The position numbers and the translations under genes were made by a program. This document shows positions 17,562 to 64,000 of a stretch of DNA of 64,000 nt, in pieces; position 1 is the stretch's first letter; each line of letters opens with the position of its first letter. A model generated the notes under the pieces. The model made no database searches and was not told where the DNA came from. It was given only the letters and a program-made list of their open reading frames with translations. The stretch lies in the IMG/VR virus record IMGVR_UViG_3300013744_000001, positions 1 through 64,000 of that record, one strand, 5' to 3'. The stretch comes from a virus.

Positions 17562-17891
17562 ATGGACAGACACGAATACAATGCATTCGTCGAAGGTCTG
17601 ACGGCGCTTTTTCAAAAGCACGGATTGGACGCCGACTGCTCCGACTTGATTCTTCAGGCGGGCGTCGGCGTCACCGAGTCTTACATGCATGACCTTGGCA
17701 TCGCAGTCGATCTGCACAACGACAGAGTTTATGTGAGTGTTCTGGACGATGGTGTAGGCGAGGACTACGCCAGAGAGAAGGTACAGCTCTTCGCCCGCAT
17801 GCTTAAGCGTCGTATCGACTGGATGCAGAACAGGATGCGGAAAAACGAAGCTACGGATTCAGGGAGCTGTGATGAAGGAAATAATTTATGA
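17562..17891 (+). CDS. hypothetical protein
   Basis: 109-aa ORF whose 3' end overlaps the polymerase start. Confidence 0.4.
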   Translation: MDRHEYNAFVEGLTALFQKHGLDADCSDLILQAGVGVTESYMHDLGIAVDLHNDRVYVSVLDDGVGEDYAREKVQLFARMLKRRIDWMQNRMRKNEATDSGSCDEGNNL

Positions 17892-29871: not shown

Positions 29872-29904
29872 ACGATGGGGGTAACGAAACGTTACCCCCA
29901 TCGT
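29872..29904 (+). terminator. rho-independent terminator
   Basis: 15-bp perfect stem acgatgggggtaacg / cgttacccccatcgt with an aaa loop, followed by ttgtattcgttttcg. Confidence 0.7.
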
Positions 29905-37477: not shown

Positions 37478-37643
37478 CATCTAAAATAAAATTTCCCAAC
37501 ATCGGTATTACCGATGTTGGTGCTGACCAATTACATGGGCCGTCCGCCCCGACGCATTTCAGGAAACGTCGTATATCTGTCAAAGTTAGACTCGTCTAAA
37601 ATAGGATTCCCAACATCGGTAATACCGATGTTGGGATTAATAC
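37478..37643. repeat. two copies of a ~45-bp element containing the perfect palindrome ccaacatcggta(tt/at)accgatgttgg
   Basis: Copy 1 at 37478..37526, copy 2 at 37589..37643. Both share tc(a/g)tctaaaata...ttcccaacatcggtaNNaccgatgttgg. Confidence 0.8.
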
Positions 37644-37803
37644 TTGATTTTTCGTCATTATCGAGAGTGCTTAACGCATCACTCAAGTTAACAATTTCCA
37701 GAATATCGCAGATGTCCTTGGCTACGAACCAGGGTTCTCCGTCTCTGACCACAGTGCGAATCTCGTGCTGGTTCTGAAAACTGAATACTGTTACTTCATT
37801 CAT
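37531..37803 (-). pseudogene. truncated Bro-N paralog
   Basis: The first 55 aa (MNEVTVFSFQNQHEIRTVVRDGEPWFVAKDICDILEIVNLSDALSTLDNDEKS) match the other Bro-N proteins. After that the frame runs into the palindromic repeat element and loses homology. Confidence 0.5.
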
Positions 37804-46900: not shown

Positions 46901-49900
46901 CTCGGCCTCTTCCTGTGTATCCACAAGTATCAGCGTCTCCGAACCCAGAAGATTGGCCAGACGACTGTCGCTCATCAGCCGTGTACGTAGCAACTCTCTC
47001 AGAAGCGAGATACCTTTGGTACCTGCGCGACGAACTCTAGCAGCTCTGGTGTTTCGTGAAAACAGAGGCCCTGCCAGCACACTCACACGTGCGTTCATGG
47101 CAACAAGTGCGTCGACATCTTTTACGTCTGGAAGCGGCTTGGTCACTGGAAAACTGCGATTGAACAGATCCTCGACCTTGCGCACCAGGTTCTGCATATC
47201 TTCCAGTGTCGAATTTCTGTCGTTCATGACCTCAGCAACTTCCTGACCCAGCTCACTGTTACTATCGAGGCGAGAACCAAGGACACCAGCGTAGATGCGC
47301 ACGGCGTTGCGATAGAAATTGCGCTCCATCCTGTCGGCGATCTCTTCCAGCGCAGCAGCTTTCTCCTCGGGCGTTGACAGTTGATTCGCTGCTTCGACCT
47401 TTTTAGCCACACCAGAGAGTGCACTCATAGCACCCTTGCTGAGCCTCATCTGCTCCCGAATGGCTGCTTCCAAATTTTGAATACGCTCGGTCTGCGTTTT
47501 TACAGCAAGTTCCGGTTGACCGGAAGTCACAGCATCTTCTGTACTGACAGACGTTGTCGCCTGGTCGTTGCTATGACCCATCGGATGCAGAAGCGACTCA
47601 TTAACAGAAGAGAAGAAGCCTTTTTTCGACGGCGTCCATGTCCAGCCCTGCGGCTCACCGAGCGGACTGAGGAGATGAACATACTCTTTGACCTTGGCCA
47701 GAATATCGGCAAAGGGCGTATCCTCGCCGAACATCACAAGACTGTTGTCATTGTTGAACTGACTGAGAATGGCGTGAACGCTGACCAACTCGCCTGTCGC
47801 AGCTTCGGAGTTACGGCCTATATCCTCAAGCTTTGTATCATTGCTGAAAAGCTTTGCCTTGCTGATATCCTTTGTCCAGTAAATACCCGTATTACCAGAC
47901 TTGGCAGAAACATACTCCGTTTCCCCGTCAGTGTTTACACGAGCAACAACGCGAGCGTCGATCCAGTTGGTACCAAAGACACTGCGCAAATCATCGAGAC
48001 TGGTTGCGTTGAACAAACGTTCGAGTCTTGCAGGGAACGAATCTTCTTCCGCAGACCATTCAATGACGCGGTGCAGAGGTCGCTTGTCGCCGGTTGTCTT
48101 GCCACTCGTACGCCAGACAGCGTAAATCTTTCGTTTCGCACTATCCTTCTGATTGCGAGGATAGACGAAAATGATTTCATCAGATACACCGGATTCAACA
48201 GGGAGAGAAATAGTCTCATATCCCTGGCGGCTCTTGCCCTGTAAAACACCGACGACATACTCGATACCTTGTCTGGCGTCGATCTCGTCGGTCATCTCAT
48301 CCATGAATCTGGTGAGATTACCCTTGGTCAGAAGACGACCACGCTGGTTGCGAAGAATCACCTTGCCGCTATCGGTGACATAGAGACTTAGTAATGCGCC
48401 ATTGTCTGTCACAAGAGAACGATAGTTGACATCGTTTCGACCCTCGTCATCAATGATTCTACTGAGACGAAGTCTGCGAATATCGTCATCGTTAAACTGC
48501 CACCAGGCTTTAGAGCCCTTCATCTGTCGCTGTACACGAATGCCTTCGGCAGGTGGACCAATGTAGATGCTCTTCGCAACCACCGTGCCCTGTCCTTCCT
48601 GATTGTTGGCATCGGGCTTGGCGTAAGCTGTGCGGATTTCCTGTCTCGCAACACGGTCATCCAGCTTTATCTGTGCACCTGTCTCCACATCATAGCCGTC
48701 AACCGTGGCATAGAGAGCACTGCTGTTGTTACTCTCGTGAAGCCTTGCATGATAAAGAATACCGTCTTTATAGGCATAGATGTCCCGACTTCCGATACCT
48801 CTGGACTTTCTTGTTTTGGCAGAAACCTGCTCAGGCGAGATGACAAAGTAACCCTGTTCTCTGAGCGTCTGCTCGATGTTTCTGGTGTCCTGAAGTTCTT
48901 CTCGCTTTGTGACGTTGCCGTCGTCATCCGTCTCTTCGACCTCCACCAACTCAAGGAAAGAAGCTCTGGTGCCTGATGCTCCCTGTCTGGGCACATCGGT
49001 CACGACGGGAATGGATACTGCCCCCGCAGGCGCAGTGTCTGTTACAAGCTCGGGAGGCGCAGTACCCTTGTATGTGTACAGCTCACGTTCCAGATAAGAC
49101 AGCAGACCCTCATCACTCTGATCCTCGATCTTGCTGGCATCGATGGTCGTGCTCTTGTGAAACACAACCGCATTGTCGTTTGCATTATGCAGAGCAACGA
49201 TTCTCTCGATCAGTCTGCCCGAACGATCACCGCGCACCGTAAGCGTCTGACCGGACGAGAATTTGACAGAAGCTTCGTCATTCTCGTTACGATGCTCTAT
49301 CTGCTTTGCGTCGATTGTCTTCTTGGTTTGAGGATCGTTGATTGTAGCCAGAAGGCGTAAATATGCCTCGCGATCCGAAGAACCTTCGGCAATGTACTTG
49401 CCGATAGACACAACACTGTCCTCCTGACCGGTAGCAGCATTTGTCAAACTGTCCCACTCGTACATGCCGTCCTTGCGTTTGGCATGAGGAAGTGTTGTCA
49501 CCTCTTTGTCAGACACACCTGCGATAACATCCGTACCATCATCAGTGGGACTGAGATCGTCCCGATTGACACCTTTGATGTCTGTACGCTTGGGAAAACC
49601 GGCAGCAGGTCCAACGTCCAGCGGTCCTTCGTCGTCTCCTCTGATGATGCGATCGTTGAACTCTTTTTCTTCAGCACGCGATGTCAGTTTGTCCCCTGCC
49701 TCGGAAACTGTATGAATGCCTGCACCGGACGCTGCACCGACGAGGAAGGTATCGATACTCCTGTCAACAACGTCCATCGCACCATAGGTCGCACCCTTCA
49801 GGGCAGCAGAACCCATGGCAACATGTTCCTGCGCCGTTTCGGTTACACCTTCAAAGAGAGCGGCTCTGCCGGTGCGTTGCAGAATATTCCGATCTGCTTC

Positions 49901-51064
49901 CCGCATTGCGGCAATCTCTGCCCGCCTTGCCGATATCCTGCTCAGTTCGACTCTCGTGGCATTGCGAGCTGTAACACCTCCGCGTGTGAACAAAGCCTTG
50001 GCTTCGTTAACAACACCGCCACCAACGACGTTGAGAGTACCGACAATATCCAACGACGCCGACGCAAGACCTGCGACAAGTGTGCTGGTCGGATGCTCGG
50101 GGTCGTAAACACCCTTTGCTCTTTCTTCCCCGCGTATTGCGCCCAGTTCCTGTGCAGAGGCAAAGATGCCCAGACCGGTAAGAATACGACGGGCAATGCC
50201 CAAGCGCCCCGTCTTGGGAAGGAATCTGGCAACGCCTACAAGACCAAGAGATGGAGCAATCGATGCCCAGTTCTCGATCAGCATCTCGTTGACCTTGCCG
50301 ACCAGAGCACCGAAACCCTCTTCCAGAAGCGTTTCTCTGGCACTCTTGCCATACGTCCGCTCATAGTTGCCGTTTTTGATATCTTCTTCAGTCTTGATCA
50401 CAGCCTGATTGGCCCAGTCGCTGATCTGCTTCGATCCAAGCTGATCACCCACAAGACCAATAGCATCTGCCCAATTCTGCGTAGCCTGCTTGACAGAATG
50501 CACAGCAGCACTGTCCCGCTTGACCGTTTCACCTTCCGCATCGGGCAGTGCCAGAGTTTTGGCATTGGACTTCAGAACCTCATCGACTGTCGTATACTCG
50601 TCGATACCCGATTTCTCAAAGAACAGCTTCTTGAAGTTGGCCTTGCTGACACCTTTCAGATACGGGAACTCATACTTGGTCGTTCTGCCGATGACCCTGT
50701 TGGCCATCTTGTCCATGTAGTAGTCAAGGTTCTCGGTCTTTACCGGGTCCGCTTCGATGAACGCTCTCAAAGTTTGAAGATTCAGAACATCGTCCGGATT
50801 CTCCGATGGCTTCTGCAAACCAAAGGTACTGTGCGCATCGGGGAAGATATCAAAGGTCGTGTTCAATGCAAAGTCTTCGCGCTCTTCCTTGCTGGCCAGC
50901 GTAGGATCGCTCTTGGCAACCTTGAGCGCAGCGCCATATGCCTGCTTGATAGCATGGTCGTAGAGATAATTCTTCTGCTCGGCACTCAAATCATCGGCGC
51001 TGCCTTCAACACCCAGCGCTGCCAAATACGACTGATAATCGAACGTGTCCCTTGAATTTGCCAT
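37916..51064 (-). CDS. giant 4382-aa protein with repeated zincin-like HExxH motifs (polyvalent, probably virion-delivered)
   Basis: Uninterrupted 13.1-kb frame. HExxH-type motifs LMHEIQHAV, VMHECSHYG and variant LMHELGAHV lie in separate regions. No Walker A or polymerase motifs were recognised. Its start is coupled to the upstream stop (TGAgATG). Confidence 0.7.
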   Translation of the reverse strand: MANSRDTFDYQSYLAALGVEGSADDLSAEQKNYLYDHAIKQAYGAALKVAKSDPTLASKEEREDFALNTTFDIFPDAHSTFGLQKPSENPDDVLNLQTLRAFIEADPVKTENLDYYMDKMANRVIGRTTKYEFPYLKGVSKANFKKLFFEKSGIDEYTTVDEVLKSNAKTLALPDAEGETVKRDSAAVHSVKQATQNWADAIGLVGDQLGSKQISDWANQAVIKTEEDIKNGNYERTYGKSARETLLEEGFGALVGKVNEMLIENWASIAPSLGLVGVARFLPKTGRLGIARRILTGLGIFASAQELGAIRGEERAKGVYDPEHPTSTLVAGLASASLDIVGTLNVVGGGVVNEAKALFTRGGVTARNATRVELSRISARRAEIAAMREADRNILQRTGRAALFEGVTETAQEHVAMGSAALKGATYGAMDVVDRSIDTFLVGAASGAGIHTVSEAGDKLTSRAEEKEFNDRIIRGDDEGPLDVGPAAGFPKRTDIKGVNRDDLSPTDDGTDVIAGVSDKEVTTLPHAKRKDGMYEWDSLTNAATGQEDSVVSIGKYIAEGSSDREAYLRLLATINDPQTKKTIDAKQIEHRNENDEASVKFSSGQTLTVRGDRSGRLIERIVALHNANDNAVVFHKSTTIDASKIEDQSDEGLLSYLERELYTYKGTAPPELVTDTAPAGAVSIPVVTDVPRQGASGTRASFLELVEVEETDDDGNVTKREELQDTRNIEQTLREQGYFVISPEQVSAKTRKSRGIGSRDIYAYKDGILYHARLHESNNSSALYATVDGYDVETGAQIKLDDRVARQEIRTAYAKPDANNQEGQGTVVAKSIYIGPPAEGIRVQRQMKGSKAWWQFNDDDIRRLRLSRIIDDEGRNDVNYRSLVTDNGALLSLYVTDSGKVILRNQRGRLLTKGNLTRFMDEMTDEIDARQGIEYVVGVLQGKSRQGYETISLPVESGVSDEIIFVYPRNQKDSAKRKIYAVWRTSGKTTGDKRPLHRVIEWSAEEDSFPARLERLFNATSLDDLRSVFGTNWIDARVVARVNTDGETEYVSAKSGNTGIYWTKDISKAKLFSNDTKLEDIGRNSEAATGELVSVHAILSQFNNDNSLVMFGEDTPFADILAKVKEYVHLLSPLGEPQGWTWTPSKKGFFSSVNESLLHPMGHSNDQATTSVSTEDAVTSGQPELAVKTQTERIQNLEAAIREQMRLSKGAMSALSGVAKKVEAANQLSTPEEKAAALEEIADRMERNFYRNAVRIYAGVLGSRLDSNSELGQEVAEVMNDRNSTLEDMQNLVRKVEDLFNRSFPVTKPLPDVKDVDALVAMNARVSVLAGPLFSRNTRAARVRRAGTKGISLLRELLRTRLMSDSRLANLLGSETLILVDTQEEAEELIAAAYGTAPFYSREGLIQGFVIPETGQVVLVGDGIRVGDAGAVLMHELGAHVRRFGFSDEEFTGILDELKNRQNDDSEEGRQIREAIRRVQEGNRLNSNDRHFWEEVGAYLVEANAGNPTSIVSRIVSWIKTYLYKLSVIDTDSLTNQDIVNFARGAVRTARRGDFDRNVSQTISRNAQIYGLARNLGVPIDELRKELDKIHERTASEESDVQFSFAGERGAAALDNAEAATTRLDNLVVAREMEAANKSVSLIKLATGWERGKDGKWRYELDDSGITVRTNEAIHALAQVVPVALRKIIDAPELFAAYPELQQMRFAYRADDDSRVAGTYFGPKRGIHLRDDLLKKPEKAKQVLMHEIQHAVQDIEGFANGGSVEEAPVNVNREKARENAPGPWLKLMTDKSLLTGYLKTHGISVKANGDLSRKVRIDKYKASSINRLVKLINRLFAVKTPYYNEKRYERDIYRKLYNVGWDHFYDYVRRNVPAFRGMDKTKFDAQWGVVRSWKEEYEQELAAIKWYKSIAGETEARNVETRLDMTATERRESAAYQTEDIAREDQHILEKELRGFVQLFSAHQELRSRSDLMVDFVQTPSFKAWYGDWQTDSSLSPPAVQQAEDGNLVVKNSKGEFKVFDEATPKFSMAISNKPVQYEEMDSGIVHLGPNAKHIVPKESAIPKKLRDKGVVFYSPETISNFNTRFDRLRRYGFIYASLNDRVSSIDALQNIIMRRQQAMLPGTTSADFALGRFINDTFVIDYLSVDREHMSEYVFMHEMTENGVPFVTALAYDEEIDLNEMNNPGLFGFNVSYIGQQYSSGLSRQHKHVYILAENNTPQADIDLYIQQLKARADFVEREITEDDIGEQVSPVPWYSSLAELVGEQSRNLPAAKWLSRLVQWGNESKNRGESSPFNQEVYWTGVREWLEIKDPNDIVEPAELYDFLVGNNVEFKNVMLGGPRSKLGRYARQSVPLDNTDWDLRIRKHESSDYVFAAVSSDLFADQPIAYALLSRLSVHSAGTGIRRVILAINNDDITTLLNNNDVQTRLENILDATFKPVANQQAVGNARKQWAKQFKNYKDAITYFNDWFNQNIYNNPELAYLTSDTSSYLPTHYSGSVMEGRKTDYAELLFYQNKKTPTLEYLHEFVIDPRHWRKEVVNGGLRYTLSEDAMLGRDMHIDYVEKDNKYALTIEVFSDDDFYDISNVSDGTTVTYTTDTLEEALKRASDFVVEQDMNEQLVADEFNQGHFPREGKDLVAHTRFDTRETTDGKRILFVEEVQSDWANDLLFGKLRPEAPYVKYQKAWVTMVAKQVIAHAVEQGDIDGISWTSAEDQSNRWHTMGKRRLEVYQKTLPKAMQNILSDHSPDAKLENVDIQDIGVRQALMLTDEIRNSIQSKGFPLFSIQDTGRSSDETVEGQQIQGAPGVYNRKGGGFAMRYDETVPGHERESLVYGAVLMTDNARDTDLLRALQTSLEADKDLLDSTVGMLVRESQNGESFDRKGIFASMMREVIFEGEENPHFNEVRDALYDAAGLALHVAPSSLSLTDAELLSAANAIGALENNVSEIDVAHPVPPPASELTRNEILDEAIQAGIEENDSVVPEYNADGTASVRTESGNTEYVFEDVNGKDENFRAALDSLSELTTNYDDGTLFSTNEDGTVRKIPGLTTPEELEAFLQRILPPELYEQIEIHWEETRTAKAILRNAFGLFFPYRATDKSIHIRAWDRSIPQVLATVMHECSHYGWTMWGSKALDAEIVRIYNAYTETIYAELPQYFEMLGISDPYLVPDKWKVYLVNEFFAHVNASLMDDSPQIANAFHISDEEYRAMRERLWGVMAEIERKIGNSLLVNIGDRTAIDKFAKDLIALTMGTVVGRGARLIQNTLQSPTGARAPLSKIQIITNDYGQTRRTVPQTREALQVAETREVIRKWGRFFSKGDVIAEFILNNFPMHNRLKGWGFFPSLNVEHAVLGESVGTAYASRLIGNFWNKVSETVASKQRKRFLDLLDLKSALLDAHFDPNLIGGRGNETFAQVFTRLGFAPDSAMMQKARLADATALELSSMKYRNALDIRRAIRGQALELEKRMRIAKIDERTIGRMRKSMAQFESRFHADWDHRMYNVFNGETGVRDLQRLLSYLETDTGAGEMTVNERARDAERIIEAATQQEQAGLITYKQFLSSTRDARTVLKDKERLDALKHYFELRTSNAVKIRAGSDWRTMLLRNMRAEIKQLIMEASRSNNNNGYGEDHLNRISAVRGRTLEDTEEDNFYRTFLDPNTNFFESLLYSVDQQEKILQKLTFNQEMAEHILDTGMGVLRQSIEHDRSYSDSLSWAEDGSILKYVAVDPIFQHALDNEYEVNRNVREAAWSGAIDSMKANSTIYSLRLAVSNHIGSLGILMSSGHLFRIGMMKKAGHVSWKQFADKMLLNSKNLSEAENKFLQMMYKYHIWGATTSDTMMQIRNKGWHEKAIHAIFSYLRDLNVVSNMSQNGLENIVKNALDKMRQFYAFGDEWLKPWVFMNNYNNMLAKHKALTPGLREEQYERLAGKDAAEMTLQETTSWEYTPKLIRHMSMNSIRMITPDFLMHNFQMARITAAIYTRFFDVMEELGKVSARDDVNEPAMKEYKDALTKEAVQRGIGVGLTTATYYGLFGAAKGVIAYLPYALGTMLGAIKLDDDDDERKKRRARSFFYPSEYHGATRITNWLNGGNNLFLPVMRDHDDPYSFFGYNYARNNVMLTHAPIMAATEDPTFEQRIIEAMKNFMDLSQGTMTQELVNNLMGKDKFGREISPAEAATAIGKRMMVPGVMTQILQATVGLPSTDTDFRKGRAIKVPQLAGITVNKYDVRDVTNHLGYFIREQGSLSKNVKKRAFVDDLSKGQPLPARDIAERIAKLREKNREDLNKAVYLLKGIRDFGLSEKEIHKYLTTSRKNAATLVSKDNAMAFLKGQNIFDIMLLNSLEEKKRNLLKSVPTSRMDKDSIDIAIANTDRAIKLMRQSLRISVE

Positions 51065-54510: not shown

Positions 54511-55122
54511 TTACCCCTTGAGAAAATTATGCAGAGCAACGCCGAATGCCGTGCCTGCCGAATTGAAACCGTAACCAAAGGCATAAGTCGAACGCATATA
54601 AGAATCTGCAATACCCGGAAAATACTGGGCGTCACCCTCGCGCTCCACAGGAATGCCGACAACAACTTTCCAACGACTGAGCAGATCGGTGTTAACCCTT
54701 GTGCTCTCACTGTTATGCGTTACGGCGCGGACATGTGCAACCGCGGGTACGACACTAGTGGCAGCTCTGCCTGCGTAACCCACCATCGCCAGAGGACGAT
54801 ACCCGTCATTGCCCCGTCTGATCTTGCGCATCGACTCGCCGAAACCCCGAAACACAGCGCCCTTGGCCCGCTTGACACTGGAATCGCAGTACTTGTACGC
54901 GTTGGCAAAGAACTTGCGGTACCAGTTATAAAAGTCTGCGTCTGCGTCCCTGAACTCATAATAAATGTCTCTGGTCTCATCACCCAACTCTTCCAGCTTC
55001 TCAGCCAGTTGCTTGAGCTTCTTGATGTACTTGCGAAGCGCAATGAGATAAAAAGCCATCTGGGCAATGGAAAGCACCAGAGCCGATATCTCATAAAACT
55101 TGACAGCAGAACCACCAGCCAT
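54511..55122 (-). CDS. membrane-anchored protein, paralog of 55124..55930
   Basis: N-terminal TM helix ISALVLSIAQMAFYLIAL. The C-terminal motif GFNSAGTAFGVAL is shared with its neighbour. Confidence 0.45.
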   Translation of the reverse strand: MAGGSAVKFYEISALVLSIAQMAFYLIALRKYIKKLKQLAEKLEELGDETRDIYYEFRDADADFYNWYRKFFANAYKYCDSSVKRAKGAVFRGFGESMRKIRRGNDGYRPLAMVGYAGRAATSVVPAVAHVRAVTHNSESTRVNTDLLSRWKVVVGIPVEREGDAQYFPGIADSYMRSTYAFGYGFNSAGTAFGVALHNFLKG

Positions 55123-55123
55123 G

Positions 55124-55930
55124 TCATCCTCGTATCGCCTGAGACGCAGGCATGCCTATCTGAATCGGATTGGGCGAAGCGTTACTACCCAGACCCAGAT
55201 TATTCGTACTTATCTGCTGACCACCCTGCGGCAAGGTTGCCATCCGACCCAGGCTCACGCCGAGTGCTGCACCAGCAGAGTTAAACCCGCTGATGAATAT
55301 ATCGGAGAGACCCTGAAAAATAGCACCGCTCTGCTGATAATACTTCATCACATTGTCCGCGTTGAATACAGCTTTCATGCTCGACTGCGCAACCTGAACA
55401 ATGCGGGCCTTTTCCCACTTGAAGTTCAAAGCTTCCCGCTTTGCATGCGCTTCCATCAGCGATCCGGCAGAGCCTGTGCCCAAAGCCGCCGCAAGCTGCC
55501 CGTCGTGCAATCCCCACCCTGAAGGAATACCACAACAACTCGCTCGGGACAACTGAAATTGCATAGACGTCACAGCATTGCCATCAGAATCTGTCTCTTT
55601 GGCAAAGCGTGTGGCATTGCCACAAGGGTTCGAGCTGGGCTCTGGAATACCCAAAGCCTGCTTCTTCCAACGCAGAATCGGCAAGTCCTGATTCATCCGA
55701 TACTCGTGAAGCTTGTCGATGAACTCCATCTGTTTGTCGATCAACCTATCTCTGTCCTCAATGGCGTCGTCAAACATCTTCCAATAAATGATGAGCTGTG
55801 CCAACGCAAAGACGAGCTGAATCATCGTTTCAATCTGGAGCTCCTTCTCATACTGAAGCCGCTCCCGAAAGTACATGTTCGTTTCCATATTGAACATGTT
55901 TGCGTTTACAACCGTTACTGGAATACCCAT
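55124..55930 (-). CDS. membrane-anchored protein, paralog of 54511..55122
   Basis: TM helix MIQLVFALAQLIIYW. The C-terminus carries GFNSAGAALGVSL. Confidence 0.45.
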   Translation of the reverse strand: MGIPVTVVNANMFNMETNMYFRERLQYEKELQIETMIQLVFALAQLIIYWKMFDDAIEDRDRLIDKQMEFIDKLHEYRMNQDLPILRWKKQALGIPEPSSNPCGNATRFAKETDSDGNAVTSMQFQLSRASCCGIPSGWGLHDGQLAAALGTGSAGSLMEAHAKREALNFKWEKARIVQVAQSSMKAVFNADNVMKYYQQSGAIFQGLSDIFISGFNSAGAALGVSLGRMATLPQGGQQISTNNLGLGSNASPNPIQIGMPASQAIRG

Positions 55931-55981
55931 CGTCTCTGCCTCAACCGTTAACTAAATTTTATTACGCAAATCCAAGTACTT

Positions 55982-56010
55982 CCACAAAGTGAGTGTGGCT
56001 CACTTTGTGG
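55982..56010 (-). terminator. hairpin ccacaaagtgag / ctcactttgtgg
   Basis: 12-bp perfect stem with a 5-nt loop between two minus-strand genes. Confidence 0.4.
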
Positions 56011-56022
56011 ATATGTCTGTTT

Positions 56023-56322
56023 TCATTGAACAATTTGTTTCGTCTCAGAAGCAAACAATTGTTTCGCCTCCAAATGCGTTGCCATATAATTTATAAGCTC
56101 GGTCTTTCGTTCCACATACTCAACACCTTGACCAATGAGAACACCGTTAAGCGTTTCCAACTCTCCCAAAATATCGAGCTGCTTAACTGTCAACTTTTCT
56201 CTATCGAGTCCTGTGTACTTACCTGTCAGCGTCCAATTTATAAGCTTGGCCTCGTTCATATAATGCCTGGCATCTGTCGACTTTCCTCGCTTATCGCGAG
56301 TCAATTTTAACAACTTGCACAT
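56023..56322 (-). pseudogene. C-terminal half of a split KilA-N family paralog
   Basis: ARHYMNEAKLINW...GLDREKLTVKQLDILGELE aligns to the C-terminal region of the 61391..62116 product (ARMINQIMFG...GLDKETLDILAKIEE). Confidence 0.4.
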
Positions 56323-56365
56323 TGTCTTAAACGAACAGGTCGCAACACTTCGTAAACGTTTCCAT

Positions 56366-56644
56366 TCAAATTGAGGATGATCGCCGCGAAGAACTTTGTA
56401 AAATCGTCAATGATTTCGCATACTTCCAAATGGGGGGATTTTCCCCCATTTGGAAGTTATTGTTTTCATTATACATTTTACAAAGCTCATTTATATATGT
56501 TTTCGTCGACGGAAGTTTGAACCACTCTTTCAAATCCCTGCCAAAATTTTTCGCAGCTTCTGTAGCATTGAACCAACCATCCTCCATAAAGAAAACATCC
56601 ATATCCTCATACTGACTAACCACCAGCTCATTCTTCTTTCCCAT
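56366..56644 (-). pseudogene. N-terminal KilA-N domain fragment of the same split paralog
   Basis: EDGWFNATEAAKNFGRDLKEWFK parallels DEGWFNATEVGVHFGKRVDHWLA. The frame degenerates into SSSRRSSSI after the embedded palindrome. Confidence 0.45.
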
Positions 56645-56661
56645 AACGCACCTCCGAAAAA

Positions 56662-57150
56662 TTATAATTTCTGTTCAAAATACATCTCAGCCTCAGGCGA
56701 CAATCTGAACACCAACCGCAACTTGGCCATAAACTCGGCTGCGAATTCATAGCCTTTCCAGAGGAAAGCAAGCATAACCAGAGCATCCATCTTGCAGAAC
56801 ATCAGATGTTGAATCGCCTTGAACGCATCTTTGTCATTCTCCTTATCGGCAACGATGAACATCTTCCTGAGTGCAGCGATGCGAATCTTGTCGAAGATAA
56901 CAAAGGCCCGCAGTACCGAGTAATGTTTGAGGAAGAACTCATTCGTTGTCAGAGCACTATCATATTCATAGGCCAATTGTAACGCATGGGGCGAAAGACC
57001 CGATATCTCCGACTGTCTGCCCATAATGGCCTGTTCCGTTACCTCAGTGACAGCCTGAGCCGAGACAATGTACATGGCAATATCCAGAACATCCTTCTCG
57101 TTAAACGTATCCTGAATGAGGGTCATTACTTCCTTGCCGAATCCATCCAT
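56662..57150 (-). CDS. hypothetical protein
   Basis: ATG at 57150 follows cAGGAGAatgca. 163-aa ORF. Confidence 0.4.
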   Translation of the reverse strand: MDGFGKEVMTLIQDTFNEKDVLDIAMYIVSAQAVTEVTEQAIMGRQSEISGLSPHALQLAYEYDSALTTNEFFLKHYSVLRAFVIFDKIRIAALRKMFIVADKENDKDAFKAIQHLMFCKMDALVMLAFLWKGYEFAAEFMAKLRLVFRLSPEAEMYFEQKL

Positions 57151-57166
57151 TGCATTCTCCTGTTGT

Positions 57167-58933
57167 TTATTCAACTTCCTCACCCTCGCCCCGAACAGCC
57201 GAGGACGAGGAATAACTAAGCTCCTGCGCACTGGTGGCAACCTTTATCTCGTGCACAATACCCGAGCCCCTCAGATATGCATAACAGCTCTGGTACGATA
57301 CATTGGTAAAAGACAGACCGAAGCCTCGTGAGCTGACGACTTCCATATTGTCGGAGTGTTCTATCTCCCGACCAAACTCATGTATGTGGAAGGAAAGGAT
57401 GAGCGAAGGTGCAGACCTCTCATCCCATTCTATCCGCATATGTGTAAAATGATTCTTCCCCTCGCTGTCCAGATAGAACTTCACCGACCACGGACAAGTC
57501 CTGCACTGCTCGCAGACCACTGGACGCACATGATCGAAGGGGTCGAAGGGGCTGCACACCAGACGCCTGTAATCCCAGCGATAAACCCTGTTGTCCTGTG
57601 CGTAGACAATGTGCCCGTCCTGATCCAGCGCAAAGGCTGTGGGTCGAATGTAGGTGATGGGCATGATATGCGTTTCCTGAATAGTGTCCGTTCCATCATC
57701 ACCGAACTCCAACATGAGCGAGCAGGCCAGCTCATCGGAAGTGAAGATGTAACCGAACTCGTAACAGGTACCGCGCACAGTCTTTGAATTGATATTCATC
57801 CATTGCTCCGAGCTGAGCAATGGCTTGAGCGCAAAGTCGATGCTCCTGCTGACACCTGCCGACGTTCTGGTGACCCTCCATGTGTAGAGACCGTAGGTCG
57901 AAGCAAAGACAATGGTATCACCCCAAACAGAGAGCGAAGCTCTGGATGCCAACGGGAGTCGTCTCTCGACTACTATTCGCTCGGCAACCAATTCATTCTC
58001 CCTGATCGTGTAGGATATGACCACCGGCCTGTTATCGGTGAACACAAAAATCTGGTCGTGCACAGCAACGATGGCCAGAATATTGTCCTCGATGCTTACG
58101 ACATTCTCCCACGTAAACTGCGGTTTGCCGTTCTCGCTGATATACACCTCATGGTCTGTGGCTACCGCAAGTCCATGTTCCGTTCTGGCCACATCGACAA
58201 GACCCCACGGTGCGGGGAAAGCCATGGGACTGTATGTAAGTAGCGGCCCACCTGTGCCGCTGCTAGGCGCATTATCCCTGTAAATTCTGGCCTTGCCGCC
58301 CGAGAACTCGGCTACAAAGACAAACTCGGTGTCATTCGCAGACGCTGCCTCGGGATCCGCATAGTTGGTCTCTGTCCGATAAAGTCTGGTGGCGACAATG
58401 GCATAACCGGGAGGTGCAGCGGCCCAGCTCACCGTAGCGTTGGGTACAGCACCGGTCGCAGCCACGGGGGAAGAAGGTGGTGAAGGCGCGCTCTCCACCT
58501 CGATACCTGCATGCCTTGTCACGTAGGTTATGACGTAGCTCACCGCCTGAGCGTCGCAGCCCGAGCACCCAGCCTTTGCCTTGGGTGCCTCAGGACAGAA
58601 AGGTGCACCTGCCAGCCACGACTCCCCGCGACAAAGCTCCGACGATGTGGCCTGATGCAACCTGCCACCGGCGATGAAGAAGTACTGATCGGAGCAAAAA
58701 CCCTTGACCACTGTGGTATGTGTCGTGAAACCAAGGCAAGGACAGTTGGGTAAAGGAAACAGCGAACGATAAGCCGGCACACCCTCGCAGAGACTTTCCG
58801 GACAGGCGAAAGGACGAATGTCACCGTGGTGCAGATTGGCGTCCTGAATACTGAATATGCCCCGACCCCGCATGTAGCGGTTGCGCCATGGTGTGATGTT
58901 GGCAATGTTTCTGAAAATAACGTTCGTTGCCAT
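57167..58933 (-). CDS. hypothetical virion protein (Cys-rich N-terminus)
   Basis: ATG at 58933 lies 2 nt after the upstream stop. 588 aa with no recognisable motif. Confidence 0.45.
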   Translation of the reverse strand: MATNVIFRNIANITPWRNRYMRGRGIFSIQDANLHHGDIRPFACPESLCEGVPAYRSLFPLPNCPCLGFTTHTTVVKGFCSDQYFFIAGGRLHQATSSELCRGESWLAGAPFCPEAPKAKAGCSGCDAQAVSYVITYVTRHAGIEVESAPSPPSSPVAATGAVPNATVSWAAAPPGYAIVATRLYRTETNYADPEAASANDTEFVFVAEFSGGKARIYRDNAPSSGTGGPLLTYSPMAFPAPWGLVDVARTEHGLAVATDHEVYISENGKPQFTWENVVSIEDNILAIVAVHDQIFVFTDNRPVVISYTIRENELVAERIVVERRLPLASRASLSVWGDTIVFASTYGLYTWRVTRTSAGVSRSIDFALKPLLSSEQWMNINSKTVRGTCYEFGYIFTSDELACSLMLEFGDDGTDTIQETHIMPITYIRPTAFALDQDGHIVYAQDNRVYRWDYRRLVCSPFDPFDHVRPVVCEQCRTCPWSVKFYLDSEGKNHFTHMRIEWDERSAPSLILSFHIHEFGREIEHSDNMEVVSSRGFGLSFTNVSYQSCYAYLRGSGIVHEIKVATSAQELSYSSSSAVRGEGEEVE

Positions 58934-58935
58934 GT

Positions 58936-59431
58936 TCAACACACAATGTCCGAAGGCGGAATGGACTTCAGCTCGCAGTTATCATCGACAGTCAGTATCC
59001 TGTCACCTGCGACCAGATGTCCCTTGGGAATACCGTTCTTGTAACCGTACAGCTCACAGAGATTGACTGCCTTCTTGATCAGATCGCCCAGCTTGACCCA
59101 GCCTTTGAGACAACCCTTATCGTCCAGCACGGCCAGTCTGGTGTCCGCTGTAAGTGTCAGCTCTTCGTCCTTGCAGCCCGTGTCCGCCGGAGCATCGTCA
59201 CAGTCGAACACTATGCAGATGCCGGGTGGAAAGACGACCAGCGCATCGAAGCTGACGATAATTTCGTCACCCAGCGCAATGGACTTGCCAAACGAGTCCT
59301 GCCCGTTGTATGTCACACGGACTTTGCAGATCTGTCCGTCGTAAAACTGGGCACGAACAGCAGCAAAGTTATTGGTATTCTTCGGACTGAATACAAAACT
59401 CTGACCGACAAGCGGTGTAAGGACTTCCAGA
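58936..59431 (-). CDS. hypothetical protein
   Basis: ATG at 59431 follows GGAGGGAccttta. Confidence 0.4.
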
Positions 59432-59435
59432 TCTA

Positions 59436-59978
59436 TCATGGTAAAGGTCCCTCCGGGATGTTGAGATCGGGAGCGTACTCTTTCCTGACGCTGGCCTTCT
59501 TCAGTATAAGCTTTGTTCTGCAAACACCTGTCTGACAGGATACAACCTTGTCCGGATCGCACTCGTCCGTAACACAAGGCGGCTCGACGAAGGTACTGGT
59601 GTCGATGCACTGCTCGGACACCGCCTCTCCGCTGGCAATCCATGTGCCCGGCGCTTTGATGATTTCAATCTTGTCGACCAGGCAATCTTTCCAGTAGAGT
59701 GCTCCGATATAAAAACCTCTGGGAAACTTCTTGGGATCCGTCATGAACTCCCCGTCGAGGAGGAAGAAGTAAGTATCTCCCTCATTGCCGTAAGGTTTGA
59801 AAACGACGGGCTTTTCCCTGCAGGGTCCACAGTAAAGACGCTCGACCTTGAGCTCCAGCGGTATGGTTTTGGGCAGACCGGCATATCTGTTTCGTCCAAT
59901 TTCCAGCGCTATTTCGACACTTTTGGGTCCAATGTAGAAGCGTTCCCGGTAGTGTCTTGGTTCTCTGTTACATTGCAT
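59436..59978 (-). CDS. hypothetical protein
   Basis: 180-aa ORF in an operon-like series. Confidence 0.4.
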   Translation of the reverse strand: MQCNREPRHYRERFYIGPKSVEIALEIGRNRYAGLPKTIPLELKVERLYCGPCREKPVVFKPYGNEGDTYFFLLDGEFMTDPKKFPRGFYIGALYWKDCLVDKIEIIKAPGTWIASGEAVSEQCIDTSTFVEPPCVTDECDPDKVVSCQTGVCRTKLILKKASVRKEYAPDLNIPEGPLP

Positions 59979-60594
59979 CGGTGAGCCTCTTGTACTTTAT
60001 ACCGATCGGTCTCGAAGCGTCAGTGCCGCCTCTCGCCGCCCGATTGCGCAACTTCCTGTACTCATGCTCCTTCAATCTGAACATCTGCACGTCATACCAT
60101 GTCCTGCGCACCATGCCAAAGAGCCGCATCTCCATGCCTGCGAGAATGGCATCGTAGTAACGAGACAGGAAAGACGCCTCAAAGAGACAGTTCATATTCG
60201 TCACATCCGGCACCAATGCCACTTCGACATACAGCGCTTTATCAATATCGGTTTTCGGACAGCAACCGAGGACCAGCTCATGCTCGTCAAGAACGTAGGA
60301 AGAAGGAATGTGAGCCTTGCCAGTCTTCAGCCCCATGCTGGCATCGATGAAAAAGCCCTCAGGTGCAAAGAGTTCATACCTATCGACTTCGGCGTAGAGA
60401 TCTATGGGAATATCGATACGATAGAGATGAGTCTCTTTGGTAAAAGCGATCAGTGTATCCCTGAAGATGACAGCTATCAGGGCCTTGAACTCGGCATCTG
60501 AAAGCTGGTCATCCCGCTTTTCCTTCTCTCTTACGATGGCCGTCAGTGCGGGGAGGAAAAGTTCATAGCCCGCAAGCTTTGTCCGCCTATTCAT
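59968..60594 (-). CDS. hypothetical protein
   Basis: 208-aa ORF overlapping both neighbours by a few nt. Confidence 0.4.
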   Translation of the reverse strand: MNRRTKLAGYELFLPALTAIVREKEKRDDQLSDAEFKALIAVIFRDTLIAFTKETHLYRIDIPIDLYAEVDRYELFAPEGFFIDASMGLKTGKAHIPSSYVLDEHELVLGCCPKTDIDKALYVEVALVPDVTNMNCLFEASFLSRYYDAILAGMEMRLFGMVRRTWYDVQMFRLKEHEYRKLRNRAARGGTDASRPIGIKYKRLTDAM

Positions 60595-61277
60595 TTGTCC
60601 TCCACCTTCCTGTGCCCAAAGAGATAGTCATCCTCCCTGAGCGAGAACTCGATCATCAGCTTGGTCTGCACCAGATACTGCACGGCAGTCCAGTGATGCG
60701 CCGCCCGTTCGAGATTACTCTTACTCTCGGAGTCTGTGCGGAAAAGCCAGAACGCCGCATACTCGGCAATGATGGAAAGATACTCGGCCAGCAGATCCGT
60801 TTCGAGATCCTCGATACCGGGAGCTTTGGCACAGAGATATCTGACAATAGTACCTTTCGGCAAAGGATGATCGAAACGAATGACGCAAGCGGAATTGTCA
60901 ACGTACGACCAGGTATAATCCCTGTCTCCGGGTCCCGAGACTGTGCAGCCTATGTCGAGAGAAGCAAAGAGACTGTTGGTATTGGCCTTGTTCTCAGAGA
61001 TATTCAGACAACTCCTGCCGTCGATTTCGATATCGACGATGCCAAGAAACTTCCCACACTCCTCGCAGAAGCTGATGATGCAGTCCTCTTTCTGAATGGT
61101 AAAGGTCTTCAGCTTGCCAAACTTCTCGGGTACAATTGAATAGAGAAAAGTCAGCGCAAGCGTTACAGCTTCGGTGACGTGTGCTTTGGACCAGGTAAAG
61201 AAGGTAGGTTGACGAACACCACGAGCAGATTCTTCATGGTCGTTCAGATGTCTGGCTAGAAAATCACGGATGTCCAT
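60591..61277 (-). CDS. hypothetical protein
   Basis: 228-aa ORF. Confidence 0.4.
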   Translation of the reverse strand: MDIRDFLARHLNDHEESARGVRQPTFFTWSKAHVTEAVTLALTFLYSIVPEKFGKLKTFTIQKEDCIISFCEECGKFLGIVDIEIDGRSCLNISENKANTNSLFASLDIGCTVSGPGDRDYTWSYVDNSACVIRFDHPLPKGTIVRYLCAKAPGIEDLETDLLAEYLSIIAEYAAFWLFRTDSESKSNLERAAHHWTAVQYLVQTKLMIEFSLREDDYLFGHRKVEDK

Positions 61278-61347
61278 AACGCATCCTCACACTTTTGAAG
61301 GTTTGGAGGAAGGATACAGACAAATGTGCGATATGTCAATGACAAAG

Positions 61348-61384
61348 GTGAAACAAGGGCGACAGCATATTGCTCTTGTTTCAC
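61348..61384 (-). terminator. hairpin downstream of the KilA-N gene
   Basis: gtgaaacaag / cttgtttcac 10-bp stem with a 17-nt loop. Confidence 0.4.
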
Positions 61385-61390
61385 GATCAT

Positions 61391-62116
61391 TCATTTTTGT
61401 TCTACCTGCCGTGCACCGGCACGAACAAGGGCTTCATACATGCTGGTAATCAATTCCTTTCGCTGTTGATAAGGTACTCGCGCACCAACGAGTACCAAAT
61501 CATGCTCTTCAATTTTAGCCAAAATATCCAACGTTTCTTTGTCCAAACCATGTCTGTCCTGCTTGTCACAACCAAACATGATTTGGTTTATCATACGCGC
61601 CTCATTTGAATAATCATAAAACTTGGGCTCTTTGCCGTCTGCTTCCTTTGCAAACTTAATTGTATCACACAGCACTTTGTACGAACTCGCCGCCTGATGC
61701 CGAAGTCGCCACCACTCCTGTCGAGGATGTTTGTTACGCAAAATTTTCTCAATCTGAATGTCGCACCATATGCCAAATCTTGGCGAACACCATCGCGCAA
61801 ACAGAACAGCAAGCCGAGGATGAAGCCACGTTCCACCATGCTTTCCGCGTTTTGTTTTTATAAAAAATTTCGACGTAATTTCGGGCACTTGTAAATACCC
61901 GGAATTCCGGGTATTTACAAGTTGTTGATTTTCCGATGTTATTTTACATAGTTCTGCAATATACTCCCGTGTATCTTCGTTAGCCAACCAATGATCTACA
62001 CGCTTGCCAAAATGAACACCCACCTCAGTAGCATTGAACCAGCCTTCGTCCCCGAAAGAGATCTCAATGCCCTCGTACTCAGAAATCATAAGTTCTTCCA
62101 TACCGTCCTCCATCAC
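61391..62116 (-). CDS. KilA-N domain protein
   Basis: GWFNATEVGVHFGK ... GTWLHPRLAVLFARWCSPRFGIW matches the KilA-N core. Confidence 0.65.
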   Translation of the reverse strand: MMEDGMEELMISEYEGIEISFGDEGWFNATEVGVHFGKRVDHWLANEDTREYIAELCKITSENQQLVNTRNSGYLQVPEITSKFFIKTKRGKHGGTWLHPRLAVLFARWCSPRFGIWCDIQIEKILRNKHPRQEWWRLRHQAASSYKVLCDTIKFAKEADGKEPKFYDYSNEARMINQIMFGCDKQDRHGLDKETLDILAKIEEHDLVLVGARVPYQQRKELITSMYEALVRAGARQVEQK

Positions 62117-62134
62117 AAAAAATCAAAGCAACAA

Positions 62135-62893
62135 TTACTTCAACATAGATATAATACTTTCCTTCCAGCGCAACTGTTGAACCATCGAACCGTCGTGATG
62201 TGCCTTGCCTGTATCCAGAATAACAGCGTAGGCTCTGCCCTTCTCGGTCGGTCGCCATTCGTTACGCTCATTCTTGAACTGAAAACCCTCTTCGGCTAAT
62301 AGAAGATTGGCGTGCCTGGCGGCCTTTCGTCCAATACCCATGTGTAACCGTTCGCCGATCTCTGTCGCCAGTAGATAGTTGCTGTTGTCCTCGGCAATCA
62401 GCTTTACATCCAGCTCCGCCTGAAAGTCGATGCCGGTTCGTTTCCTTGTGGTAACATTGGCAGAAATCAAAGCCCTATTTCCGCTCAATCCAAACGCCTC
62501 AGCAACTCGCTTCAGCGCTAAAAACTCCCGTTCCGCAAACTCAATGGGAATAGGCTGAGATATCGAAGGCGACTCATATTTCCCAGTTTTGCGAATAGCT
62601 GGGAGCACCTCAGACGTTACCCATTCAATAAACGGTTCTGCCTGCGGCTTGTCCGACCTGAGCACAAGTCGATATAACCCAGACTCAGAAATAACGGAAA
62701 TTCGCTGCTTTCCACCAAGGGTGTCAGTCAGGCTGACACCCTTGTGGTGATCGGGTATTCTTGCAAGGGCTTGGCCAACATTGTCCAAGCCCAAAATGTC
62801 ACAGATGTCCTTGGCGACGAACCAAGGCTCTCCGTCTTTGATCACAGTACGAACCTGACTTTGGTTAAAATTGAATACTGTTACTTCGTTCAT
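62135..62893 (-). CDS. Bro-N domain antirepressor-like protein
   Basis: MNEVTVFNFNQSQVRTVIKDGEPWFVAKDICDILGL. RBS cAAGGAGGaatc. The 5' leader matches the 63214 gene. Confidence 0.7.
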   Translation of the reverse strand: MNEVTVFNFNQSQVRTVIKDGEPWFVAKDICDILGLDNVGQALARIPDHHKGVSLTDTLGGKQRISVISESGLYRLVLRSDKPQAEPFIEWVTSEVLPAIRKTGKYESPSISQPIPIEFAEREFLALKRVAEAFGLSGNRALISANVTTRKRTGIDFQAELDVKLIAEDNSNYLLATEIGERLHMGIGRKAARHANLLLAEEGFQFKNERNEWRPTEKGRAYAVILDTGKAHHDGSMVQQLRWKESIISMLK

Positions 62894-62920
62894 GATTCCT
62901 CCTTGTAGAGTGATAAAAAA

Positions 62921-63214
62921 TCAAGTGACAATTACTTCAACACATTCCTGGGCCGCAGGCAATTGTGAACCCACAATCAATCGATACAAATCAGGTTCTG
63001 TCAGAAAACGAGCCTCTTGCGTACGCCCAAGGCTATCGACGATGGGGTAGCGTTTTGCTACCCCACGGCAACGTTTGGACATAGCATCGGACGCGTTGAC
63101 ATAGCCCAGAATCTCACAGACATCCTTACCGCAGAATAGTGGATTTCCGTCAGCGTCAATGATGGTGCGAACTTCGTGCCGGTCCTGAAAATTAAATACT
63201 GTTACTTCGTTCAT
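62921..63214 (-). CDS. Bro-N domain only (short or truncated paralog)
   Basis: ATG at 63214 has the same leader and RBS as 62893. MNEVTVFNFQDRHEVRTIIDADGNPLFCGKDVCEILGY stops after QLPAAQ, where the 36693 paralog continues. Confidence 0.45.
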   Translation of the reverse strand: MNEVTVFNFQDRHEVRTIIDADGNPLFCGKDVCEILGYVNASDAMSKRCRGVAKRYPIVDSLGRTQEARFLTEPDLYRLIVGSQLPAAQECVEVIVT

Positions 63215-63355
63215 GATTCCTCCTTGTAGAGTAGATTTGATGGGATGACTGTCGGAATTTAGCACACTCGATGTCCGACGTCAAGGTTCCGTCGGTAATA
63301 GCGACGGAACCACCGTACCCATGATTCCTCTCTGACCATAAAAATCAAGCGACAA

Positions 63356-64000
63356 TTACTTCAATACATCAAGAACAGTTTCCTTCCACTTCAACTGCTG
63401 AATCATGACACCGGAGCTGTGACGTTTGCCTGTATCCAAAAGCACCGCATGAACCTTGCCCTTCTCTGTCGGCAACCATTGCCCGCCGGACTTGACCTGA
63501 TAACCTCCGATCTCAAGCAGCTTGTTTACCTCCCTCGGTCCGGAGAGATGCAGCATCTCAGCAATCTGAGTGGGTGAAAAGAAATATTTCTGGTCGGGGT
63601 TCTTCAACTCGATCTGCAAGGTCTGAAGCAACGAGATACCATGCTCCCTGCGAATGGCATTGTCGGCAGAGACGATGGCCGCATTCCCTTCCAACCCGCA
63701 GAGCTCGGCCACAGCCTTCAACGCCGCAAACTCGCGGGCCGCCACCTCTTTGTTCAAAAGCTCAGACCGTGGCAGGACATACGCACCGGTTTTACGAATA
63801 GTTGGGAGTACTTCCGATGTTACCCACTTGCGAAATGCCTGAGCCTCGGGCTTCCGGGATTTGAAAACAAGTGCATAAAGCCCAGACTCAGAAATGACGG
63901 ACATTCGCTGACTTCCGCCAAGGGTACGTATACTGTACGTACCCTTTTCATCGTCACCTAACGACTGAACTGTCTGACTCACATCTGTCAGCTCCAGAAT
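63356..64000 (-). CDS. Bro-N family gene, 5' end beyond the window
   Basis: The frame stays open to position 64000. Upstream in-frame codons read ILELTDVSQTVQSLGDDEKGTY, matching Bro-N ILELTNPTVAIESLDDDERSKY. The ORF-track start at 63982 is an artefact. Confidence 0.55.
   Translation of the reverse strand: MLELTDVSQTVQSLGDDEKGTYSIRTLGGSQRMSVISESGLYALVFKSRKPEAQAFRKWVTSEVLPTIRKTGAYVLPRSELLNKEVAAREFAALKAVAELCGLEGNAAIVSADNAIRREHGISLLQTLQIELKNPDQKYFFSPTQIAEMLHLSGPREVNKLLEIGGYQVKSGGQWLPTEKGKVHAVLLDTGKRHSSGVMIQQLKWKETVLDVLK

Follow-up and report, generated by a model that had tools for sequence, protein, structure and literature searches.

Why should two KilA-N genes of one virus each contain a perfect palindrome at equivalent codons, and why should one of these genes be split at just that place? 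The question is raised by the first 64,000 nucleotides of the IMG/VR virus record IMGVR_UViG_3300013744_000001 (positions 1 to 64,000, hereafter the window), for which a preliminary description had proposed that the two palindromes are unrelated in sequence and mark sites of targeted cleavage or recombination. Comparison of KilA-N genes across related phages leads to a different answer. A hairpin recurs in the same loop-coding segment of these genes, and it is inherited with them rather than inserted locally. We hold with high confidence the joint conclusion that the hairpin is a stem-loop maintained throughout the family and that the split copy is a pseudogene. For the further reading that the stem-loop is a selected cis-acting structure, acting on the expression of its own gene or recognized by the product of that gene, as opposed to a functionless one, we give a probability of roughly 0.5. 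The KilA-N features concerned are the following.

61391..62116, minus strand: intact KilA-N gene of 241 amino acids, with a KilA-N domain and a conserved C-terminal helical domain.
61888-61921, minus strand: 34-bp core of the perfect palindrome of the intact gene, which becomes 36 bp (18+18) with the flanking A/T at 61887-61922.
56366..56644, minus strand: open reading frame (ORF) for the N-terminal fragment of a decayed KilA-N paralog, 92 amino acids.
56422..56457, minus strand: hairpin of the decayed copy, 15+6+15 (14+6+14 at 56423-56456).
56394..56403, minus strand: left arm of a second hairpin of the decayed copy, TTTTACAAAG on the coding strand, located by alignment to the related phage contig L001.
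56023..56322, minus strand: ORF for the C-terminal fragment of the decayed paralog, 99 amino acids, in a third frame.

The palindrome of the intact gene (cttgtaaatacccggaattccgggtatttacaag) is present as had been reported; it lies about 190 nucleotides into the ORF and codes for amino acids 64-75 (LVNTRNSGYLQV). The 14+14-bp palindrome reported for the 92-residue ORF is present as a 14+6+14 hairpin. These are the two longest inverted repeats of the window. By an arithmetic estimate, 64 kb should contain by chance about 0.003 stems that are perfect over 14 bp or more and have a loop of at most 10, and the earlier view that the palindromes exceed chance stands. RNA folding of a 92-nucleotide context around the palindrome of the intact copy gives -29.5 kcal/mol (z = -5.6 versus shuffled sequence), and an extended 98-nucleotide fold at the hairpin of the decayed copy gives -47.2 kcal/mol (z = -11, likewise versus shuffled sequence). 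The two palindromes do occupy homologous positions, since they fall in the same columns of a DNA alignment of the paralogs. They are not unrelated, however. Read on the coding strand as CTTgtAAATacccggaattccgggtATTTacAAG and CTTccAAATgggggaaaatccccccATTTggAAG, they are identical at 20 of 34 positions (CTT..AAAT / ATTT..AAG), and the remaining differences are compensatory ones that occur on both arms and preserve pairing. The two palindromes are copies of one inherited stem-loop.

The protein encoded by the intact gene matches the Pfam family PF04383 (E = 1.5e-20; 73.4 bits against a cutoff of 23.8; profile positions 6-106), and a homolog search with it retrieved 482 sequences. The comparison drew on about 80 homologous loci in IMG/VR and on 80 in GTDB genomes, the latter being prophages of Pseudomonas, Acinetobacter, Halomonas, Neisseria, Nitrotoga and others. 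In most KilA-N members of both sets, the ORF has its best hairpin 12-19 codons ahead of the GTW(L)HP motif, in the segment that codes for the flexible loop joining helix 3 to the KTKRG-GGTW beta-hairpin. An AlphaFold2 (AF2) model of the intact protein (mean predicted local distance difference test score, pLDDT, of 86.8) places residues 64-75, which the palindrome encodes, within a low-confidence coil (64-85) between a helix (47-63) and a beta-hairpin (86-98). The mapping of the hairpin onto the protein uses this AF2 model only, and sequence searches of the PDB with both family profiles (KilA-N and Bro-N) found no solved relative. The hairpin-coding segment is also the most gapped and most variable part of the KilA-N family alignment.

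Stems in this family reach 18 bp and are highly diverse in sequence (examples are AAATACCCGGaaaTCCGGGTATTT, AAATACGGGAaaaTCCCGTATTT, CTTAGAAGCGAGAaaaTCTCGCTTCTAAG, TAAATCACTCcaaagaGAGTGATTTA and GATTTAAATAGCTCAgatgTGAGCTATTTAAATC). The base of the stem (..AAAT.. / ..ATTT..) is common to the KilA-N hairpins, and the upper stem is exchanged by compensatory substitutions, even where the amino acids or the local reading frame change. The nearest relative of the intact copy (P0002 from L002, 52% identity) shows this pattern, with CTTCCAAATCCGGGctaaaCCCGGATTTGGAAG at the same position, alike at the base and different at the top. The same hairpin core can be translated in different frames, as NTRNSGY or as KYGKIPY, and it must therefore be the nucleic acid rather than the peptide that is conserved. 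Cultured phages with the hairpin include the P22-like Salmonella phage SE1 (TACATACCCGtgattcCGGGTATGTA) and, with one mismatch, orf11 of Pseudomonas phage D3. In two temperate relatives (L297 and L299), the KilA-N gene directly follows a cro-like or helix-turn-helix (HTH) gene and lies opposite an S24 or HTH repressor gene.

The palindrome of the intact copy is the canonical AATACCCGG..CCGGGTATT hairpin of the KilA-N family, lengthened outward. Only the outer extension and about 10 amino acids downstream of it are specific to the subfamily, and the core aligns to the conserved NTRxSG[YD]L motif. In the subfamily to which the window belongs, the stem is enlarged to 34-37 bp and a second hairpin lies adjacent to it, and the close relatives P0003, P0005 and P0006 carry two to three tandem hairpins in the hairpin-coding loop. 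These tandem hairpins, together with the two-hairpin layout of the window subfamily, lead us to conclude that the loop is a permissive place in which palindromic DNA is kept, lengthened and duplicated.

To evaluate the pairing against protein-coding constraint, we used peptide-preserving synonymous recoding as the null model for 132 unique KilA-N genes, with a target region of 28 codons and two control regions of equal length within the same genes. Recoded sequences have a mean longest stem of about 4.7 bp, while the observed stems extend to 18 bp. The target region departs from the null at p <= 0.05 in 36% of the genes and at p <= 0.01 in 21%, and perfect stems of at least 8 bp are found there in 42 of the 132. 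The control regions reach p <= 0.05 in 0.8% and 0% of these genes and contain no stem of at least 8 bp.

A gapless alignment (A7) of 30 unique genes, which includes the intact copy of the window and is anchored only on the peptide N-T-x...[DY]-L, shows how the stem varies. Pairing is possible in 83.1% of its cells compared with 73.2% in shuffles (0/500), 8 of 12 pairs have changes on both sides, and the covariation score is 0.286 compared with 0.129 in shuffles and at most 0.132 in slid controls. Some of the covariation changes amino acids (ACC CGA..TCG GGG, ACC TCA..TGA GG, ACC CCT..AGG GG and ACC TCG..CGA GG). Synonymous sites are frozen as well. Among the 24 genes that read KYGKIPY, whose loci range from 36 to 63% GC, TAC is used for the first Tyr in 21 of 24 and TAT for the second Tyr in 21 of 21, each codon fitting its pairing partner, and the Lys codon is AAA in 18 of 18. 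Lys codons in the unpaired apex are AAA rather than AAG by 50 to 2, against 541 to 692 elsewhere in the same genes (p = 2e-15), and the loop bases of KilA-N hairpins are 58% A. Because the upper stem changes in a compensatory manner and synonymous sites are frozen in both the stem and the A-rich apex, we conclude that base-pairing itself is maintained in the KilA-N hairpin.

Bro-N genes have an analogous codon-aligned stem-loop, and the three Bro-N genes of the window, which are among them, have theirs in corresponding positions.

62716..62744, minus strand: perfect 12+5+12 hairpin in the Bro-N gene 62135-62893(-), codon-aligned as AAG GGT GTC AG..CT GAC ACC CTT and encoding KGVSLTDTL.
63011..63034, minus strand: weaker quasi-palindrome at the corresponding place of the 114-residue Bro-N gene 62921-63265(-).
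63920..63946, minus strand: perfect 11+5+11 hairpin (AAGGGTACGTA..TACGTACCCTT) in the third Bro-N gene, 63356-63982(-), encoding KGTYSIRTL.

Bro-N homologs from IMG/VR share a codon-aligned palindrome of the form AAG GGT xxx ... xxx ACC CTT, in which codons covary as reverse complements: V(GTC) with D(GAC), T(ACG) with R(CGT), T(ACT) with S(AGT), R(CGG) with P(CCG), and N(AAT) with I(ATT). Even the K/L pair (AAG/CTT) can switch to R/P (AGG/CCT). In a gapless, peptide-anchored alignment (A5) of 55 unique Bro-N sequences, 72.6% of cells pair compared with 62.6% in shuffles, and the covariation score is 0.271 compared with 0.108 in shuffles and at most 0.117 in slid controls. The Thr codon is ACC in 54 of these 55 sequences and the Leu codon is nearly always CTT, while the adjoining Gly codons are free to vary. 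Both alignments thus exceed their shuffles and slid controls and the in-gene controls are negative, which is the general pattern of a structure-constrained stem-loop.

Two of the Bro-N genes in the window look incomplete. The 114-residue ORF at 62921-63265 contains Bro-N only, and the gene at 63356-63982 matches the Bro-N profile from position 38 onward and then runs into an ANT-like C-terminal part. The cluster seems to be decaying or being reshuffled. A DNA similarity search of positions 55100-63000 against cultured phages gave a single match, a 39-nucleotide stretch at 62798-62836 in a Bro-N gene (..DGEPWFVAKD..) with 97% identity to an antirepressor gene of Mycobacterium phage Anthony. Conservation of this stretch at the nucleotide level between such distant hosts is striking.

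The history of the split copy can be read from an intact ortholog, P0009, a protein of 249 amino acids encoded at L001:10001-10750. Its gene is about 94% identical in nucleotide sequence to the window and is syntenic with the split copy, lying between the same 162- and 268-residue genes on a related 69-kb phage contig (L001). The alignment contains exactly two lesions, both in the window. The first is in a G-run in the 5' arm of the hairpin, which has five G residues on the coding strand where L001 has six (a plus-strand C-run at 56443-56447). With the loss of this G the frame is lost inside the palindrome, and not immediately downstream of it as had been supposed. In L001 the hairpin is 17+3+17 with G6/C6 (ACTTCCAAATGGGGGGAaaaTCCCCCCATTTGGAAGT, with CTTCCAAATGGGGGGAAAATCCCCCCATTTGGAAG at the palindrome position). 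The second lesion is a 127-bp deletion with its junction at 56393|56394, through which the KilA-N domain lost its KTRRG-GGTWLHP core. The deletion starts within the loop of the second hairpin, which in L001 is TTTTACAAAgactgctTTTGTAAAA and adjoins KTRRG.

What remains are an N-terminal ORF that matches only positions 3-59 of the KilA-N profile (35 bits in Pfam) and, as had been noted, a separate ORF for the C-terminal half, in another frame. The association of the break with the palindrome thus holds insofar as both lesions are at hairpins, but the deletion is a separate event at the second hairpin rather than at the palindrome first described. Because both lesions are so placed, palindrome-associated breakage of the gene is plausible. 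The split is not an assembly error, since the dead allele is base-for-base identical to the window across this region in four independent assemblies; its 92-residue product is on record on 12 contigs. A perfect 13+5+13 hairpin at 55981-56011 lies directly after the stop codon of the decayed gene and is terminator-like on the plus strand.

The element may be under purifying selection as a folded single strand, and intra-strand template switching probably re-perfects its arms alongside selection. It would most likely act in cis, either as an mRNA hairpin (a brake on, or a processing site in, the expression of DNA-binding proteins that could be harmful) or as a ligand bound by the product of its own gene. 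Its long perfect stems would also be fragile sites that give rise to slips and deletions. A selected function at the mRNA level in particular is a proposal that we make tentatively. Interior mismatches in the KilA-N stems are G.T in 20 cases and A.C in 2, and this excess, together with the A-rich AAA apex, points to the sense strand.

Several observations weigh against a selected structure. Mismatches in the Bro-N stems are A.C in 51 cases and G.T in 29, which does not point to the sense strand. Stem lengths range from 4 to 18 bp, many members have imperfect hairpins only, and some have none; this spread is looser than would be expected of a precise functional element and fits a mutational process. 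Kinship among the sequences inflates the significance obtained from shuffles, for which the slid and in-gene controls are a partial remedy. No Rfam family was matched in a scan of positions 55500-64000 at E <= 5 (Rfam 15 returned only spurious microRNA-precursor matches, at 22-27 bits against cutoffs of 100-211), and we found no description of a KilA-N or Bro-N hairpin in the searchable literature.

These objections are best weighed together with the alternatives. The stem-loop could be a functionless, self-perpetuating quasi-palindrome. An inverted repeat of ancestral origin, located where a permissive loop is encoded, would in this view be continually re-perfected, lengthened and duplicated as replication switches template within a strand. 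A mismatch would then be reverted or copied to the other arm, producing covariation and frozen synonymous sites without structural selection, and long versions would decay through slippage and deletion. Template switching is a documented mechanism that is able to create and maintain hairpins (PMC8794818). The wide spread of stem lengths, the coexistence of perfect and imperfect forms among close relatives, single-mismatch intermediates (such as L086 compared with L014), outward stem extension in the window subfamily, the occurrence of two to three hairpins in tandem, the homopolymer slip and the deletion located at hairpins, and the equal overall frequencies of G.T and A.C mismatches would all be expected. 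Homogenization of arms, however, gives no account of the bias toward AAA over AAG or of the A-rich unpaired apex. Five of the few strong intragenic hairpins of the window fall within its five KilA-N and Bro-N genes, and a hairpin has stayed at one position despite gene identities of only 35-50%, across hosts that range from Pseudomonas to Neisseria, and recurs in a second domain family. Such persistence would require very high correction rates everywhere, and we regard a purely mutational origin as possible but doubtful. A different suggestion, for which our expectation is lower still, is that the hairpin may serve as a cognate ligand, DNA or RNA, for the KilA-N or Bro-N domain in whose coding sequence it lies, and would mediate autoregulation or an aba-like discrimination of self from non-self. 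The self-immunity element of BstA, a KilA-N-like abortive-infection protein, is a short DNA within its own locus that is cognate for each homolog (PMC8585504), the KilA-N protein of the window matches the PADLOC defense candidate PDC-S22, the hairpin sequence above the common base is private to each paralog or ortholog, a gene-specific factor would account for the restriction to two DNA-binding families, and in temperate relatives the gene adjoins a repressor/cro pair, as bstA does. On the other hand, aba is 63 bp at a start codon with terminal direct repeats and no hairpin, and bstA of BTP1 is without an equivalent hairpin; variable stem lengths and loop sizes speak against the fixed geometry of a double-stranded half-site, and no further copies of the motif occur elsewhere in the window. 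Neither palindrome has another copy in the window within two mismatches (self-matches only), and searches of the window for the AAGGGT..ACCCTT and AAAT..ATTT motifs return the KilA-N and Bro-N sites only, a result that speaks against both an operator set and a dispersed repeat.

The three other explanations are less compatible with these data. It is improbable that the hairpins are intrinsic terminators on the antisense strand, directed against transcription that runs counter to the minus-strand gene block. A terminator scan does flag both KilA-N hairpins on the plus strand with T-rich tails (TATTGTTTTC and TGTTGATTTT), along with the intergenic hairpin 55981-56011, but the 7 terminator-like matches compare with 7.1 expected from shuffles, and the T-rich tail derives from a subfamily-specific N/E/Q-rich peptide and is found neither in the wider family nor at the Bro-N hairpins. 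Homing-endonuclease-like cleavage or recombination sites, or palindrome-mediated cassette exchange, as the preliminary description had envisaged, are now largely refuted and we consider them very improbable. In their favor, KilA-N genes are variable cargo (the intact copy is missing from L001, and relatives carry such genes elsewhere), and the split copy has both of its lesions at hairpins. Yet Pfam and PHROGs assign only KilA-N or transcription-regulator families, with no nuclease domain of the HNH, GIY-YIG, LAGLIDADG or a similar type in the genes or next to them; the whole-gene insertion or deletion relative to L001 is bounded by intergenic sites rather than by the palindrome, of which the window has no other copies; the hairpin core is inherited with the family, being homologous to its conserved NTRxSGY motif and not an insertion; and if a cruciform were cut within the gene, this gene would act in repair as the recipient and not as the donor. 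The last explanation, that palindromy arises by chance or merely mirrors the codons of a conserved peptide, is refuted by the recoding null. NTRxSG[YD]L and KG.....TLGG are indeed conserved as peptides. Against this, mean maximum stems after recoding are far shorter than those observed (about 4.7 bp against up to 18), the same core is read in different frames (NTRNSGY and KYGKIPY), amino acids covary as reverse-complement codon pairs (V/D, T/R, R/P, N/I, and K/L to R/P), and the encoded loop is predicted to be disordered.

Some further candidates were set aside for lack of fit, as judged from the sequences alone: a lambda boxB-like nut hairpin, a programmed frameshift on GGGAAAA, masking of a Shine-Dalgarno-like sequence, a CsrA site and a recombinase core site.

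Few accessory DNA-binding domains are as widespread in phages, prophages and satellites as KilA-N and Bro-N, and little of their biology is understood. Our literature searches turned up no earlier account of a stem-loop maintained at one site within these genes and strong enough to produce amino-acid covariation and frozen synonymous sites. As a conserved nucleic-acid structure within coding sequence, it is unusual in its breadth, in its codon-aligned Bro-N form and in the extent to which it drags the protein sequence along. If it is functional, it offers a concrete handle on the control of KilA-N and Bro-N genes or on self recognition. If it is not, it is a clear natural case of a palindrome that perpetuates itself, grows and duplicates within a coding sequence and in the end destroys the gene that holds it. 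In annotation, it accounts for KilA-N and Bro-N genes that are frameshifted or split, and it cautions against calling such hairpins terminators or mobile elements.

The surroundings of the intact gene and other parts of the window contain additional features. The intact KilA-N gene and its short flanks (61277-62135) are present in the window and missing from L001 (at L001:5257-5366), where a 36-nucleotide segment with its own small hairpin connects the Bro-N gene to a 228-residue gene. A promoter-like TTGACA..TATCCT sequence just downstream of this insertion or deletion is kept in both. A single giant ORF of 4382 amino acids occupies 37916-51064(-). Its counterpart in L001 has 4735 amino acids, with precomputed Pfam matches to PF18838 (LPD23) and, faintly, PF18760 (ART-PolyVal). 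Just upstream of the giant ORF is a cluster of perfect 12-15-bp hairpins (37284-37310, 37496-37520 and 37599-37645), and another such hairpin is at 29872-29904. Within the cluster, CCAACATCGGTA/TACCGATGTTGG is present twice, and AAGGGGGTAGCA/TGCTACCCCCTT is similar to ACGATGGGGGTAACG/CGTTACCCCCATCGT at 29872. A regulatory or terminator role specific to this phage is possible for these hairpins. A perfect 15+6+15 hairpin at 19450-19485 (GCCCTTGGCCTTGAT/ATCAAGGCCAAGGGC) lies inside a 683-residue ORF (17869-19920(+)).

Among known elements, Rho-independent terminators are similar in having a G+C-rich stem with an A/T-rich base, and the copies in the window are terminator-like on the antisense strand. 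The KilA-N hairpin differs in that it lies inside an ORF, in its first third, with an A-rich sense-strand tail, no U-tract, and a tail that is not conserved in the family; identification as an intrinsic terminator was rejected on these grounds. Rickettsia palindromic elements (RPEs) are mobile repeats of 100-150 bp that are dispersed by insertion into many unrelated genes. They share with the present hairpin that palindromic DNA is translated in frame in permissive surface segments and is able to multiply. The hairpin, by contrast, has a core that is inherited with its gene family, and a mobile element resembling an RPE or a miniature inverted-repeat transposable element was rejected because the window contains no dispersed copies and the hairpin is no insertion relative to homologs.

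The RNASIV survey of cis-acting RNA structures in viral coding sequences describes comparable local stem-loops with covariation (PMC6563262). Its KilA-N example comes from poxvirus, mimivirus and iridovirus genes, and no phage KilA-N or Bro-N hairpin is described there. Quasi-palindrome template-switch mutagenesis (PMC8794818) resembles the present case in its near-perfect inverted repeats, multi-base compensation, outward stem growth, and slips and deletions. The signs of such hotspots in our set are indirect, consisting of intermediates, stem extension and tandem hairpins. Template switching differs in being a mutational mechanism, which alone leaves the frozen A-rich apex and the confinement to two gene families unaccounted for.

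A conceptual parallel, short of identity, is offered by BstA, the one characterized KilA-N-type protein whose own locus holds a cis element. The aba (anti-BstA) element of prophage BTP1 comprises 63 bp at the start codon, has terminal direct repeats and acts as DNA (PMC8585504). The present element, known here from sequence alone, is instead an inverted repeat in the middle of the KilA-N domain, about 190 nucleotides into the ORF, and its assignment to the aba architecture was therefore rejected. No corresponding hairpin is present in bstA of BTP1, and in PADLOC the KilA-N protein of the window gives no match to a BstA model, only the candidate PDC-S22 (3e-14). It is unlikely, though conceivable, that we are looking at a hairpin-type analogue of BstA/aba, in which the KilA-N or Bro-N domain would bind the folded DNA or RNA hairpin of its own gene and each paralog would have a private cis signature. 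If so, such an analogue would be spread over two of the commonest phage accessory gene families and would serve for autoregulation or to distinguish self from non-self between competing phages. In both cases a KilA-N-type phage protein is associated with a short cis element that overlaps its own coding sequence, the cognate sequence differs from homolog to homolog, and the gene often lies beside a repressor/cro pair, just as bstA of BTP1 adjoins the c1 repressor gene.

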